This document shows positions 29,243 through 33,246 of a DNA stretch of 33,246 bases, one piece after another. The notes below the pieces were generated by a model that saw nothing but the letters and a program-made list of their open reading frames with translations, searched no databases and was not told the origin of the DNA. The DNA lies in assembly GCA_944363865.1 (NCBI GenBank), contig CALVVN010000012.1:1-33246 (forward strand), written 5' to 3'. The position numbers and the translations under genes were made by a program. Source of the stretch: an uncultured Bacilli bacterium (GTDB lineage Bacteria > Bacillota_I > Bacilli_A > RF39 > UBA660). The first letter of the stretch is position 1; every line of letters begins with the position of its first letter.

Positions 29243-29545
29243 TTAATTTTCAATAAACTCATAAGAATTAATAACAATATATGAATTTTCATTAAATGGT
29301 TCATTAGTATAAGGATTTATAAAATTATCTAAACTCATTTTTTCATATAAAGTTTTTAATGTAGTATTCTCATAAGCGCATTTTTCTTCTTTTAAACAAG
29401 TTTTAAACGCACTTATAATTCTTTCAACTTCAAAATCATATTCTTCTTTTAACGAAGTATTTTTTAAATTGATAGTAGTTGCTACAATAATTATAATTAA
29501 AATACCAAATATTGTAATAATTAAAGCGATCTTCCTTTTATTCAT
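29243..29545 (-). CDS. 100-aa N-terminally membrane-anchored protein, unknown function, translationally coupled to tgt
   Basis: [24 protein letters not shown] followed by a soluble domain containing 2 Cys. ATG 29545 overlaps the tgt stop (ATGAATAA). GGAGA lies 5 nt upstream. No YajC motifs. Confidence 0.5.
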
Positions 29546-30665
29546 TCTTTTCTCCATAGTACTTTGTTTTAAAATCATCCCTAAATTCAATTAATGTTTC
29601 ATCTTCTATATGTATTCTAATGTCTTCAATTAGCTTTGTTAAAAATCTTATATTATGTATAGACAAAAGTCTAGATCCTAATGTTTCATCACTTACTATT
29701 AAATGCCTAATATATGCCTTGGTATGATTTTTACATGCGTAACAATCGCAGTCTTCTTCAATTGGGTTAAAGTCAGTCTTATATTTATTATTTCTTAAGT
29801 TAATTTTACCACCTCTAGTATAAGCATTACCATGTCTAGCAAGTCTAGTTGGACTAACACAATCAAATATATCAATTCCTCGCATTACCCCTTCTATTAA
29901 ATCAATCGGGTCACCTACTCCCATTAAATACCTAATTTTATCCTTAGGCAGATATGGAACTGCATAATCAATGGCTTTATACATTATCTCTTTGCTCTCA
30001 CCAACACTTACTCCACCTATACTATACCCATCAAAATCCAATTTAACAGTTTCAATCGCGCTTTTCTTTCTTAAATCTTCAAATTCGCCACCTTGAACTA
30101 TACCAAATAAAGCTTGACTTTCACTCTTTTTATGTGCTAGTTTACCCCTTTTAGCCCACCTAATAGTTCTATCAATGCTATTAGACATATATTCATAAGA
30201 ACAAGGATATGGAGGACATTCATCAAAACTCATAATAATATCAGACCCAAGTTTATTTTGTATCTCTATACTCTTCTCCGGACTTAAGAATAATTTTTCG
30301 CCGGATAAGTGACTTTTAAAGTACACACCATCTTCATGTATATCTTTTTTATTTGCCAAACTAAATACTTGGTATCCACCAGAATCAGTTAAAATAGGTC
30401 CGTTTTTATAATTCATAAATTCATGTAAACCGCCTGCTAGATTAACTATATCCTCTCCCGGTCTTAACCACAAATGATACGTATTAGATAATATTGTATC
30501 AGCATAAACACTTTTAAGATCTTCTGTACTTAAAGTTTTAACAGTTGCCTGAGTTCCAACTGGCATAAACATAGGAGTTTTATGTACTCCCCATTTTGTT
30601 TTATATTCACCTAATCTAGCATTAGTTTTACTATCACTTTTAATAACTTTAAATTGTAAATCCAT
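29538..30665 (-). CDS. tgt: queuine/preQ1 tRNA-ribosyltransferase
   Basis: [74 protein letters not shown] upstream. Confidence 0.92.
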
Positions 30666-30723
30666 AGTTTACTCACCAAGAATATAATACCAAAAATAAA
30701 ATAATATTACAATTTATCATATA

Positions 30724-31602
30724 CTATAATTTTTTTAATTCTAAACTTAATCTATGTAATAATCTTCTATTGGTATTTAACCTTCTAGTTCTACCCGGGA
30801 CAGAATTTACTTCACAAACGTAATATTCTTTTCCATCATACAATATATCAACTGCACAGTACCATAGTCCAACAGCGTTAGCTGCATCTACAGCTAATTT
30901 TCTAACTTTTTCGTCTCTTTCTTTTAATCTTAATACTTTCGCGCCTAAACTATAATTTGTTCTAAAATCATTTTCATTTACTCTAATTGCTGAACCTTGA
31001 TATAAACCATTAATTACATAACTTCTTAAATCTTTCCCCTTTGATGTATCAATAAACTCTTGAAACATACATATTCCTTTAAATTGTGACAAGGCCATAT
31101 TAAAATCACTAGAATTATTTACTAAATATATATCTTTACCTTTAGAGCCAAATGAAGGTTTTATTACAAACTTCTTACTTCCCATTAATAATACAACATC
31201 TACATAATCAAAATCTTTTCTATTTACGCCACAAGAAAAATATATAGTCTTAGGTATTTTAATATTATTTTTAGTAAGTACTTGATAAGTTTTAAGTTTA
31301 TTTCTCGAAATAGCCATAGACTCACTATTATTAAACACTTTTATTCCTAATAATTCAAATTGTCTTGCTAAATATAAGTCATATTTCTTAAAAAATACTA
31401 TTTTAGGGAATTTTTTTATTTCTTCTTTATTTAAATAAATTTTATTAGTTGCCCCATCTGTTATAATACTAAAAGATGAATCTGATAAATATCTGACATC
31501 TATATTAAGTTTATTTTTAGCATAATTAACTAATGTATTTATTGTCCCTTTTTTTAATTTTTTTTCATACATTTCTTTGCTATAAATTACCCAAATATCC
31601 AT
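30724..31602 (-). CDS. RimK-family ATP-grasp ligase (alpha-L-glutamate-ligase-like)
   Basis: It aligns by eye with RimK along its whole length: ARQFELLGIKVFNNSESMAISRNKLKTYQVL, FVIKPSFGSKGKDIYLV, FQEFIDTSKGKDLRSYVING, NDFRTNYSLGAK, AVDILYDGKEYYVCEVNSVPG. Its SD (AGGAG) lies in the last codons of the upstream ORF. Confidence 0.8.
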   Translation of the reverse strand: MDIWVIYSKEMYEKKLKKGTINTLVNYAKNKLNIDVRYLSDSSFSIITDGATNKIYLNKEEIKKFPKIVFFKKYDLYLARQFELLGIKVFNNSESMAISRNKLKTYQVLTKNNIKIPKTIYFSCGVNRKDFDYVDVVLLMGSKKFVIKPSFGSKGKDIYLVNNSSDFNMALSQFKGICMFQEFIDTSKGKDLRSYVINGLYQGSAIRVNENDFRTNYSLGAKVLRLKERDEKVRKLAVDAANAVGLWYCAVDILYDGKEYYVCEVNSVPGRTRRLNTNRRLLHRLSLELKKL

Positions 31603-31603
31603 A

Positions 31604-33175
31604 TTATTCTCCTATATCTTTTTTAATTTCTTTTACCAATTGTTCATTTGGAATTATTATATCAGCGGTTTTGTTATTAAATCCTATTATTACAAAACCA
31701 TTTTTATTTAATTCATCAAATACTTTATCATTTTTTACTTTATCTATAGCAGTGTCATATATTTTATTAAGGGTTACAAAAGCTTTATAATCAAATTCTT
31801 GTTGATTCTTATCATAATAAAGTGCATTTAAAATTTTCTTTATTAACTCAACTAGTTCAATAGAATTTAATCTAGTTTTAACATTTCTAACTTCGACTAA
31901 TTTTTTATCTAAATAATTAACCCAAAGATATTTACTACTAATAGTTCTTTGATATTTACAATATTCTTCAAAATCCCAAATAAACTTATATTGCTTGTAT
32001 ATATTTTCTTCAAAATAACTTTCTTTTTCGCTTAATAAAGCCATTAATTTTTTGTGAGATTCAATAGGATTTGTTATGTCGTATTGATTAAAATTCATAT
32101 GTATACCACAATTCTTTTCTGGAGATACTTGTATTAAGCCTTTAGAAAAAATCATTATTTCTTGTAAATTATTCCAAAACTCATAGATTTCTTCTACTTT
32201 TAAAGGGTCTAAAACTATTTCAAATGAATAATCCCCAATAATAGTACCGTCTTTAACAAAATATCCATTTTCGCCTACTAATTCTTTTATATTTGCAAGT
32301 AACTTTTTTGTAAACGAATATTTATCTCTTTCAAGAGTAACTGATACTTCTATTTCTAATCCTACTTCATCATAATCAATTTTATCTTTTAATTTTCTTT
32401 CATAACCAAACGCTGGTTTTATATCTAATACTTTATCAAATTTTGCTTCATAGTCAAATTTGTTCTTTTTAGTATTTCTGGATATTACTTTCTTACCTTT
32501 CTTATCTTTAAAAATAACTGATGTAAATTTAGATTTATTTTCTAAATAATTTATAACACCAAGTATGGCGTTTATTAAATTTGATACTTGTGATTTATCC
32601 TTATGAAAATTTCTATTCTTTTGTCCAATTTCTAGTTGAATTGATTTTACACCAGTATCTTTATGGATTCTAGAACATATAGTTTTATTATAGGATTTAT
32701 ATATTTTATCTACTGTGATTATTCCTAAATTATGTTTATTTAATTCCTTAATTATATCTTTCATGAGTATTCTATCATTATTTACATTTTTATAGTTATT
32801 TACACCTATATCTAAATCAGTAATTTCATTTATAGCTAAAGAATGAATATCAATAACATAATCAATATTATTACTTCTCACATATTTTTTTAAATATTCA
32901 TAATAAAAATTATTTTCTTTATCATAGTTTGGGTCATAATCAATCTCTTTATTAATATACATAACATGGCAATTTGATAATTCCGAAATTACTCTTATTA
33001 AAGAATATGTCAAATAATCTTTGCTTTTATTTTCACCATTTTTTTCGTAAGTAAAAGTATGAGGCGCTGACAACAAAATATTATTTGTTCCTTTTTTACA
33101 GTTTATTTCCTCAAATTTTACTAAATTTTTATCTTTTCTATGACTTTTTAAAAGTTTTCTAAATTCTTTTAGCAT
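31604..33175 (-). CDS. fusion protein: N-terminal FGase / poly-gamma-glutamate-hydrolase-like zinc amidohydrolase domain plus C-terminal GS-like amidoligase (Amidoligase_2-like) domain
   Basis: N-terminal half (track numbering): ILLSAPH42T, IDYDPNYD 81-88, VIDIH114S, IQLE185IG. C-terminal half: GLEIEVS 275-281, KDGTIIGDYSFEIVLDP 311-327, CGIHMNFN 359-366. AGGAG lies 9 nt before ATG 33175. The track ATG at 33184 is too close to that SD. Confidence 0.6.
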   Translation of the reverse strand: MLKEFRKLLKSHRKDKNLVKFEEINCKKGTNNILLSAPHTFTYEKNGENKSKDYLTYSLIRVISELSNCHVMYINKEIDYDPNYDKENNFYYEYLKKYVRSNNIDYVIDIHSLAINEITDLDIGVNNYKNVNNDRILMKDIIKELNKHNLGIITVDKIYKSYNKTICSRIHKDTGVKSIQLEIGQKNRNFHKDKSQVSNLINAILGVINYLENKSKFTSVIFKDKKGKKVISRNTKKNKFDYEAKFDKVLDIKPAFGYERKLKDKIDYDEVGLEIEVSVTLERDKYSFTKKLLANIKELVGENGYFVKDGTIIGDYSFEIVLDPLKVEEIYEFWNNLQEIMIFSKGLIQVSPEKNCGIHMNFNQYDITNPIESHKKLMALLSEKESYFEENIYKQYKFIWDFEEYCKYQRTISSKYLWVNYLDKKLVEVRNVKTRLNSIELVELIKKILNALYYDKNQQEFDYKAFVTLNKIYDTAIDKVKNDKVFDELNKNGFVIIGFNNKTADIIIPNEQLVKEIKKDIGE

Positions 33176-33246
33176 TTTCACCATCTCCTATTTTATCTGT
33201 AATAAACATCGCATCACCAAAGCTAAAAAATCTGTAATTATTCTTT
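33159..33246 (-). CDS. queA: 3' end of S-adenosylmethionine:tRNA ribosyltransferase-isomerase
   Basis: Hand translation gives KNNYRFFSFGDAMFITDKIGDGENAKRI*. YRFFS[YF]GDAM[FL]I is the conserved QueA C-terminus. The gene continues beyond the window. Confidence 0.7.
   Translation of the reverse strand, partial: KNNYRFFSFGDAMFITDKIGDGENAKRI

Follow-up and report, generated by a model that had tools for sequence, protein, structure and literature searches.

Genes between queA and tgt

The window analyzed in this study is a stretch of 33,246 nucleotides from an uncultured Bacilli bacterium of the RF39 lineage (contig CALVVN010000012.1 of assembly GCA_944363865.1), which is very AT-rich. The minus strand at one end of this window carries, in this order, the 3' end of queA, the gene for a 523-aa two-domain protein (N-C fusion), the gene for a 292-aa RimK-family ATP-grasp ligase, tgt, and an open reading frame (ORF) for a 100-aa membrane-anchored protein (Table 1). 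The genes between queA and tgt, which encode an amidohydrolase-like N-domain, an amidoligase-like C-domain and the ATP-grasp ligase, are referred to here as the cassette. The cassette is a real, conserved and apparently undescribed accessory module of the queuosine (Q) operon, with a strong genetic tie to QueA.

The 3' end of queA contains the Shine-Dalgarno sequence (AGGAG, 33189-33185) and the start of the fusion gene. The first ATG of the mechanically called ORF is located at 33184, which corresponds to a protein of 526 aa. The homologues of the fusion protein begin at MLKE.., and the AGGAG sequence is properly spaced for the ATG at 33175. The fusion protein is therefore assigned as a 523-aa protein, with its gene overlapping queA by 17 nt, and its residue numbers follow the 526-aa numbering. 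The fusion ends with GGAGAATAA, the last codons being GGA GAA TAA (stop at 31606-31604), and the ATG of the ATP-grasp gene at 31602 is located 1 nt past this stop. QueA is assigned by PF02547 in related loci. Tgt of the window is a canonical enzyme at the equivalog level, because it gives 514.6 bits against TIGR00430 (cutoff 306.75) and an E-value of 1.3e-154 against PF01702, and the pocket motifs DEC and GGVSVGE can be read off its sequence. The original prediction, made from the sequence alone, described these overlaps, the spacer and their coordinates, all of which are present in the sequence, and its proposal of tight packing agrees with the overlapping or abutting start and stop codons and with the absence of terminator-like sites between queA, the fusion gene, the ATP-grasp gene and tgt. 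A promoter scan gives 45 matches, as compared with 36.9 +/- 6.7 expected from shuffled sequences, which is not above chance in AT-rich DNA. As judged from the sequence, the packing of the cassette genes is that of a unit expressed together with queA and tgt.

Table 1. Positions of the genes, domains and boundaries at the queA-tgt locus of the window
Feature	Positions	Strand	Basis
queA 3' end (last 28 codons and stop TAG 33161-33159)	33159..33246	-	Translation ...YRFFSFGDAMFITDKIGDGENAKRI*; same C-terminus in full-length QueA of L010
N-C fusion, 523 aa, two domains	31604..33175	-	ORF; start overlaps queA by 17 nt
N-domain, ~residues 27-219 (FGase/poly-gamma-glutamate-hydrolase-like zinc amidohydrolase fold)	32528..33106	-	AF2 and Foldseek
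Linker, residues 220-241 (Lys-rich, disordered)	32462..32527	-	pLDDT <50; missing or variable in homologues
C-domain, residues ~242-526 (glutamine-synthetase-like COOH-NH2 ligase, amidoligase)	31607..32461	-	AF2 and Foldseek
ATP-grasp ligase, RimK family, 292 aa (stop 30726-30724)	30724..31602	-	PF08443, TIGR00768
Downstream module boundary: 13 nt at the end of the ATP-grasp coding sequence (30739-30727), stop (30726-30724) and 58-nt spacer	30666..30739	-	Comparison with L027
Spacer between ATP-grasp gene and tgt, 58 nt	30723-30666	-	Sequence
tgt, canonical bacterial tRNA-guanine(34) transglycosylase	29538..30665	-	TIGR00430, PF01702
ORF of 100 aa in yajC position, N-terminal membrane helix	29243..29545	-	Start ATGAATAA overlaps tgt stop

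The whole fusion protein gives no Pfam or NCBIfam match at E<0.01, and structure prediction was therefore necessary for its assignment. Its AlphaFold (AF2) model, which was built on 19 homologues and has a mean predicted local distance difference test score (pLDDT) of 84, consists of two well-folded domains with a disordered linker between them. The N-domain (pLDDT ~90) is most similar in the PDB, when searched with Foldseek, to 2odf (Atu2144, FGase family) and to 3a9l and 21dc (phage PghP) with E-values of ~1e-5, and is also similar to zinc carboxypeptidases. The Foldseek probability is 1.0 and the target TM-score (TMt) is 0.52-0.56 for 2odf and 3a9l. The N-domain shares the fold of the FGase/PghP structural superfamily and its His, Asp/Glu and His residues of the metal-site type. 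In the alignment of the homologues, H42, D84 and D112 never vary and H114 and E185 hardly do, and these residues presumably act as metal ligands. Residue 46 of the window (33049-33047) is Tyr, where the homologues nearly always have His46 (H42-x3-H46), and is followed by Glu47. The resulting H-x4-E spacing resembles that of PghP.

The N-domain is below the thresholds of both related sequence families. It gives 14.8 bits against the N-formylglutamate amidohydrolase (FGase) family PF05013 (gathering score 28.9, E=0.033), covering only the last third of the profile, and no match to the poly-gamma-glutamate hydrolase family PF05908 (Gamma_PGA_hydro), against which the N-domain of the type-B cassettes described below gives a sub-threshold score of 18.5 bits (gathering score 22, E=0.0015). 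An exhaustive HMMER search assigns 1207 clusters at E<1e-3 to an uncurated N-domain family, most of them stand-alone proteins of ~210 aa, and the fusion partners found elsewhere in this family include ADP-ribosylglycohydrolase, SLH and CDC48_N-like domains. The stand-alone relatives P0062 and P0086 are on short contigs with uninformative neighbours, except for a Mur-ligase gene beside P0086. At L128:342-3799, a gene of the Mur-ligase family (450 aa; FolC, CapB or MurC-like) is followed directly by that of a 682-aa protein with the N-domain. Thus, FGase and PghP, both of which cut amide bonds to glutamate, are the best structural matches of the N-domain, but the N-domain differs from them in belonging to a family of its own and in being fused to QueA or to an amidoligase.

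The C-domain modelled on its own has a pLDDT of 82 and a predicted TM-score (pTM) of 0.77. Nearly all of its top PDB matches are glutamine synthetase (GS) or gamma-glutamylmethylamide synthetase (GmaS), with E-values of 1e-4 and query TM-scores (TMq) of 0.35-0.45, and a few aspartate kinase chains with low TM-scores are scattered among them. The best matches in BFVD, phage 'Amidoligase enzyme' proteins with E-values down to 6e-8 and TMq up to 0.53, are better than those in the PDB. These matches indicate a catalytic fold of the GS type. E277, E279, E322, H362, N364, E431 and R433 are invariant in the alignment of the homologues, and such an ExE...E...HxN...ExR pattern is usual for the strands that bind metal and ATP in the GS fold. 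The invariant residues of both the N- and C-domains are consistent with active enzymes. The C-half gives no match to any Pfam family at E<=10, including Amidoligase_2 (PF12224), and a profile search of the PDB sequences with the C-domain gives only noise. In contrast to the large N-domain family, the C-domain is rare in the exhaustive HMMER search. The C-domain shares the fold of GmaS, PuuA and the phage and bacterial Amidoligase_2 (COOH-NH2 ligase type 2) proteins. However, it consists of only ~285 aa, lacks the N-terminal domain of GS, gives TM-scores of only 0.35-0.53, and is either fused to a hydrolase or encoded alone beside a QueA-hydrolase protein. According to the models, the two domains are related in structure to FGase/PghP (N-domain) and to GS/Amidoligase_2 (C-domain), but neither belongs to these families at the sequence level. 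The amidohydrolase-like N-half and GS-like amidoligase C-half of the original prediction are therefore right at the fold level, although hidden Markov models could not confirm them.

The 292-aa protein reaches the thresholds of the family to which RimK, CofF, MptN and LysX belong across the full ATP-grasp domain, in agreement with its earlier designation as a RimK-family ligase. It gives 100.2 bits against RimK PF08443 (threshold 21, 1.4e-28, residues 100-273) and is a borderline member of TIGR00768 (alpha-L-glutamate ligase; 143.7 bits, cutoff 143.4). It is far below the cutoffs of all the characterized equivalogs of this family: S6-RimK NF007764 (76.2 bits, cutoff 331), MptN NF040720 (106.5, cutoff 350), CofF TIGR04443 (75.3, cutoff 300) and LysX TIGR02144 (93.4, cutoff 275.6). 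Glutamylation of ribosomal protein S6, which had been named as an assignment that would speak against a role in queuosine metabolism, is therefore not indicated by the profiles. In the reactions of RimK, CofF, MptN and LysX, glutamate is added to a terminal carboxylate, which belongs either to a protein (S6 or LysW) or to the tail of a cofactor (F420 or methanopterin). Unlike these characterized enzymes, the cassette ATP-grasp ligase is encoded between queA and tgt, has a hydrolase and another ligase as partners, and is optional in its own module, because it is missing in L003, L013 and the orphan fusions described below. Outside the clade, the named proteins closest to it are encoded by two tandem RimK-family genes of Virgibacillus necropolis, which lie between folC and valS (L129:7001-8771). 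This folC neighbourhood suggests, as a weak hint, that RimK-type enzymes act on folate-like or other small-molecule glutamyl tails. The C-terminus of Tgt was considered as a RimK-type target, since Tgt of the window ends with ...GEKNE, and was rejected because the Tgt C-termini are uncorrelated with the presence of the cassette.

Distribution and exchange of the cassette

The neighbourhood of the cassette was surveyed by scanning one genome per GTDB species. This census gives 31 species loci, all from uncultured Bacilli or 'Tenericutes'-type metagenome-assembled genomes, onto which QueA, the N-domain, the C-domain, the ATP-grasp ligase and Tgt were mapped. Only 39 clusters of fusion-like proteins are found. 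The homologues are located between queA and tgt in 24 of the 31 loci, and because it recurs in this way among species-representative genomes, the arrangement is more than chance. The order of type A, [QueA][N-C][grasp][Tgt], is found in the window and L010-L012, and the same order without the ATP-grasp gene in L013 and L003. All parts are separate genes in L008. L005/L023 and L024 (clade III) have the order [QueA][C][N-C'][grasp][Tgt]. Sixteen of the 31 loci are of type B, [QueA-N][C][grasp][Tgt]. In this whole clade QueA and the hydrolase domain form a single ORF of ~560 aa, which is intact in 15 species and interrupted in L035. Pfam assigns Queuosine_synth to residues 4-339 and Gamma_PGA_hydro to residues 370-531 of the L019 protein, and the database proteins P0038 and P0054 are also QueA-N fusions. 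P0060, which is outside the cassette family, is a fusion of the N-domain and RimK, and the 4.3 kb examined of its short contig have uninformative neighbours and no Q genes. QueA, the amidoligase and a RimK-type ligase thus each occur as a fusion partner of the hydrolase domain, and this network of fusions, with the hydrolase at its hub, ties the four together. The census, which the original prediction had proposed as a check of its queuosine hypothesis, favours a link to queuosine by both the 24 loci and the 16 QueA-N fusions.

In the remaining seven of the 31 species, and also in L009, L041 and L043, the N-C fusion is encoded alone, with no queA, tgt or ATP-grasp gene within 7 kb. The neighbours of these orphan fusions are PNP_UDP_1 and NUDIX, ThyA/DHFR and NUDIX, PrsW and a Zn peptidase, or peptide deformylase, with no recurrent partner gene. 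The tRNAs near the orphan fusions are not Q-tRNAs, and no queCDEF genes are present in the loci examined.

QueA-N at L035:7001-7616 and tgt at L033:7657-8702 are each split in two frames, which could be due to a frameshift, a pseudogene or an assembly error. Many of the AT-rich, Bacilli-like contigs, including L011-L013, L018, L021-L024 and others, are deposited as 'uncultured Muribaculaceae bacterium', which is very likely a taxonomic mislabel.

The loci were compared by sliding-window DNA identity on global alignments; long blastn high-scoring segment pairs hid the mosaic structure described here. The window and L027 are 94-99 % identical in the flanks (tgt and 3.9 kb downstream), but only 46-62 % identical in the cassette. 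The switch point is located within the last few ATP-grasp codons, at ~30739: the DNA identity is 95.4 % from position 2508 of the reverse complement (= 30739) onwards, and 46-62 % upstream of it. Likewise, L010 and L019 are 85-97 % identical in queA until ~190 nt before its end, 86-97 % identical further upstream and 88-99 % identical in tgt and downstream, but only 45-64 % identical in the cassette, with one breakpoint ~190 nt short of where the QueA domain ends and the other in the spacer between the ATP-grasp gene and tgt. The reverse is observed for loci with the same cassette type. The window and L010, both of type A, are 68-85 % identical in tgt and downstream, 81-91 % identical in the cassette and 97-98 % identical at the queA/N junction, and L027 and L019, both of type B, are 68-84 % identical in tgt and downstream and 80-89 % identical in the cassette. 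The protein identity between types A and B is ~34 % for the N-domain, ~46 % for the C-domain and ~41 % for the ATP-grasp ligase. Both types are found in each of two closely related lineages (window, L010, L019, L027 and L030), representing a trans-lineage polymorphism, and they are interleaved in the Tgt tree. Nearly identical flanks around divergent cassettes with sharp breakpoints, in each lineage, indicate that the exchanged unit is exactly [N, C, grasp], and that replacement by a divergent version, ~45 % identical in protein, occurs in the same slot between queA and tgt. The cassette is best explained as an accessory, horizontally exchangeable enzyme module that is expressed from within the queA-tgt operon and acts jointly with QueA.

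The ratio of nonsynonymous to synonymous substitution rates (dN/dS) is 0.04-0.10 for the cassette genes of both types and 0.06-0.09 for tgt and queA, indicating strong purifying selection on the cassette, equal to that on these two genes; for the window against L010, it is 0.065 for the fusion gene and 0.099 for the ATP-grasp gene. This result indicates that both versions of the cassette are functional. The synonymous distance (dS) of tgt between the window and L027 is only 0.17 beside these divergent cassettes, indicating that the polymorphism is old relative to the flanks.

The slot between queA and tgt also contains other genes. In lineages with Tgt 53-55 % identical, it is occupied by two different unrelated proteins of 216-229 aa (L119:5304-5993, L121/L122:5322-5993 and L123:5341-5991), which have no Pfam match; either the slot attracts inserts or other Q-accessory proteins exist. 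An 870-aa Gly-rich, probably secreted protein is encoded between the ATP-grasp gene and tgt at L022:9462-12074, and the same locus carries an additional stand-alone copy of the N-domain upstream of its QueA-N fusion (L022:5314-5919). At L039:633-1547, a 304-aa gene on the opposite strand takes the place of the ATP-grasp gene and is flanked by the C-domain gene and tgt.

Possible chemistry of the cassette

Whatever its chemistry is, the module is probably coupled functionally to QueA and Tgt. FGase and PghP cleave glutamate amide bonds, GS, GmaS and PuuA attach the gamma-carboxylate of glutamate to ammonia or a primary amine, such as methylamine for GmaS and putrescine for PuuA, and RimK, CofF and MptN add alpha-glutamates. 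Because the families of the N-domain (FGase/PghP), the C-domain (GS/GmaS/amidoligase) and the ATP-grasp ligase (RimK) all point to it, the chemistry of the cassette is expected to be that of glutamate. To our knowledge, preQ1 is the sole carrier of a primary amine in the queuosine pathway, and this amine is the acceptor of QueA. The aminomethyl group of preQ1, which provides this amine and is alkylated by QueA, is inferred to be the amine partner of the cassette enzymes.

A reversible glutamyl-amide mechanism acting on this group is our preferred reading, although it is only tentatively proposed, because the family assignments and the genetic coupling are the observations from which each of its chemical steps is deduced. 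The GS-like domain would activate the gamma-carboxylate of glutamate with ATP and join it to the aminomethyl group of preQ1, either as a free base or in tRNA, to form gamma-glutamyl-preQ1. The RimK-type ligase may then add alpha-linked glutamate to this product, in the way that CofF and MptN lengthen the tails of cofactors. The amidohydrolase, which is joined to QueA in most species, would strip the glutamyl group at the point of use, leaving the amine free for QueA to build epoxyqueuosine (oQ). The net result would be a reversible glutamyl 'handle' on scarce preQ1 for its retention, storage, protection or control, comparable to the glutamyl tails of folate, F420 and methanopterin and to the use of a gamma-glutamyl carrier in the Puu pathway. 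A handle left in place would instead give a new Q-family base decorated with an amide. A fuller version, in which the cassette represents an unknown queuosine branch with glutamyl or oligoglutamyl groups added to preQ1 by the GS-like and RimK-like ligases and removed by the QueA-tethered hydrolase, and in which the two cassette types differ in the group attached or recognized and form a balanced polymorphism, possibly driven by toxins or phages at the anticodon loop, is rather unlikely to be correct in all its parts.

Several observations weigh against the preferred reading. The orphan N-C fusions, which are not accompanied by queA, tgt or the ATP-grasp gene, indicate that the fusion can work away from the operon, and L003 and L013 have the operon arrangement without the ATP-grasp gene. 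A clade in which queA abuts tgt (L048-L056, with Tgt 71-75 % identical to that of the window) is nested among the carriers, and these relatives with an empty slot indicate that the module is accessory and dispensable for Q. The unrelated genes found in the slot make position alone weak evidence, and the QueA-hydrolase fusion could reflect adjacency, not function. A search for Rfam elements near the cassettes and the orphan fusions gives only tRNAs and 6S RNA, and no preQ1 riboswitch or other relevant element, at gathering thresholds. If one polypeptide both made and cut the same bond, the result would be a futile cycle, except where the ligase and the hydrolase are kept apart in substrate or time. 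The model also leaves the persistence of two very divergent versions unexplained. The orphan fusions, the dispensability of the module and the lack of a preQ1 riboswitch count against every reading that links the cassette to queuosine.

Some of these observations would be expected if the cassette is a glutamyl-peptide or protein-tailing module, combining RimK-like addition with a matching hydrolase and another ligase, with a target unrelated to queuosine. Such a module would be located in a recombination-permissive slot of a well-expressed operon, where inheritance, together with homologous recombination across the conserved flanks queA and tgt, would maintain it. The inserts of L119-L123, L022 and L039, the orphan fusions in unrelated contexts, the empty-slot clade, the joining of the large N-domain family (~1200 clusters) to many unrelated partners and the N-RimK fusion P0060 on a contig without nearby Q genes are all consistent with such a module. 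However, translational coupling to queA, the conservation of the QueA-hydrolase protein as an intact ORF in 15 divergent species (the 16th copy being interrupted), purifying selection on the C-domain and ATP-grasp ligase of the same clade, and the location of all three architectures (A, B and III) and of the split L008 version between queA and tgt speak against it. The ATP-grasp ligase is also far below the S6-RimK equivalog cutoff, and the Tgt C-termini have no acidic tail linked to the cassette. An unrelated module of this kind is therefore regarded as unlikely, but it deserves to be taken seriously. The original prediction had set its queuosine link against a chance landing of such a cassette: the census, the QueA fusion and the replacement in the same slot weaken the latter, whereas the seven orphan species, the unrelated slot genes and the cassette-free relatives keep it alive.

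The persistence of two divergent cassettes, which is not explained by the reversible handle, is best explained if the ligases permanently decorate position 34 of tRNA in an allele-specific manner, by adding an amino acid or a short peptide to tRNA-bound preQ1, oQ or Q, with the hydrolase editing or maturing the product. The two types would then attach different groups and be kept by balancing selection, exerted for example by anticodon-targeting toxins or phages. The presence of both types in each of two lineages with flanks 94-99 % identical, the low dS of tgt, purifying selection and the interleaving of the types on the Tgt tree fit this explanation, for which glutamyl-Q is a natural precedent. 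In addition, amidoligases have been noted beside nucleobase-hypermodification genes of phages (PMC8989533). On the other hand, QueA could not act on a preQ1 whose amine carries an amide, yet no locus of this kind has lost queA, and in type B its product is even joined to the hydrolase. The groups available on Q itself are limited to a secondary amine and hydroxyls, the orphan fusions are away from the operon, and neither a PADLOC defence match nor a match to a specific phage family is obtained, so that this explanation is improbable. Still less probable is a route through the carboxylate, in which the ligases amidate 7-carboxy-7-deazaguanine (CDG), either as a QueC-like bypass or to form CDG-amino-acid amides, and the hydrolase recycles conjugates of the 7-amido-7-deazaguanine (ADG) type or salvaged conjugates. 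In its favour, carboxylate activation is common to both ligase classes, no carboxylate other than CDG is known in the pathway, and the GS fold normally takes ammonia or small amines as a nucleophile. However, all three families indicate glutamate as the acyl or amine partner, the fusion partner QueA has an amine substrate, and the genes flank QueA and Tgt, which act at late, tRNA-level steps, without queCDEF in the loci examined. An origin from a defence system or a phage was considered separately and rejected, because PADLOC gives no match for the type A or B proteins, and PHROGs gives only generic RimK-like and QueA families.

Glutamyl-Q is made by GluQRS/YadB, a truncated paralogue of class-I glutamyl-tRNA synthetase, which forms an ester on the cyclopentenediol. 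We know of no other amino acid attached to a Q-family base in bacterial tRNA. GluQRS is thus a precedent for the proposed chemistry in placing glutamate on a Q-family base, but the cassette proteins have no domain of the aminoacyl-tRNA synthetase type according to Pfam and NCBIfam. Iyer, Abhiman, Burroughs and Aravind reportedly predicted in 2009, by comparative genomics, modules of amidoligases, ATP-grasp ligases and peptidases that build and trim peptide-like conjugates. The cassette follows the same logic, with GS-like and ATP-grasp COOH-NH2 ligases and a hydrolase, but it differs from those modules in its location inside the queA-tgt operon, its fusion to QueA and its alternative alleles, none of which was found in the literature searched. 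As far as we know, the bacterial queuosine pathway is regarded as essentially complete, with de novo synthesis, QueA, QueG/H and the salvage enzymes and transporters already described. The presence of three amide-bond domains between queA and tgt, with a covalent link to QueA in many species, would imply that these bacteria either form a new conjugate of the Q family or handle preQ1 in a new way, the latter being relevant to gut bacteria that compete for this scarce precursor. Two uncurated families, the FGase-like N-domain (~1200 clusters) and the mini GS-like amidoligase, gain a testable context, and the maintenance of divergent alternative cassettes by selection is unusual for a housekeeping tRNA-modification operon. 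Full-text searches of the literature give nothing that joins queuosine with ATP-grasp ligases, FGase or amidoligases, and a study of Tgt neighbourhoods published in 2024 considered only transporters (PMC11130926).

Other features of the window

The 100-aa ORF downstream of tgt gives no family match in Pfam, NCBIfam, PADLOC or PHROGs. It is retained downstream of tgt in L010, L019, L026-L028, L030 and L040, and is part of the conserved flank, not of the cassette. The flanks within the window also contain DUF421 (YrbG-like), DUF3792 (YrzE-like) and SpoVB-like genes, which match the Bacillus-type synteny that had been recognized in the window. The remaining part of the window, with holA, nusB, xseA, spoIVB, uppS, spoIIM, mnmA, hisS and aspS, represents an ordinary chromosome of a sporulating low-GC Bacillota.

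A membrane protein of the haemolysin-III family (PF03006) is encoded at 1697-2359 on the plus strand, 27 kb from tgt. A member of this family from Bifidobacterium breve has been shown to import preQ0 and preQ1 (PMC11130926). A 6S (SsrS) RNA (Rfam RF00013, 48.2 bits, gathering score 46.4) is located at 20440-20619 on the minus strand and adjoins a ThiF-family gene. A full-length Fic/DOC-domain gene is located at 2926-3861 on the plus strand, and an ORF in which just the end of a Fic domain is preserved at 5610-6011 on the same strand, with ORFs without family matches between them. This stretch may represent a small variable island.

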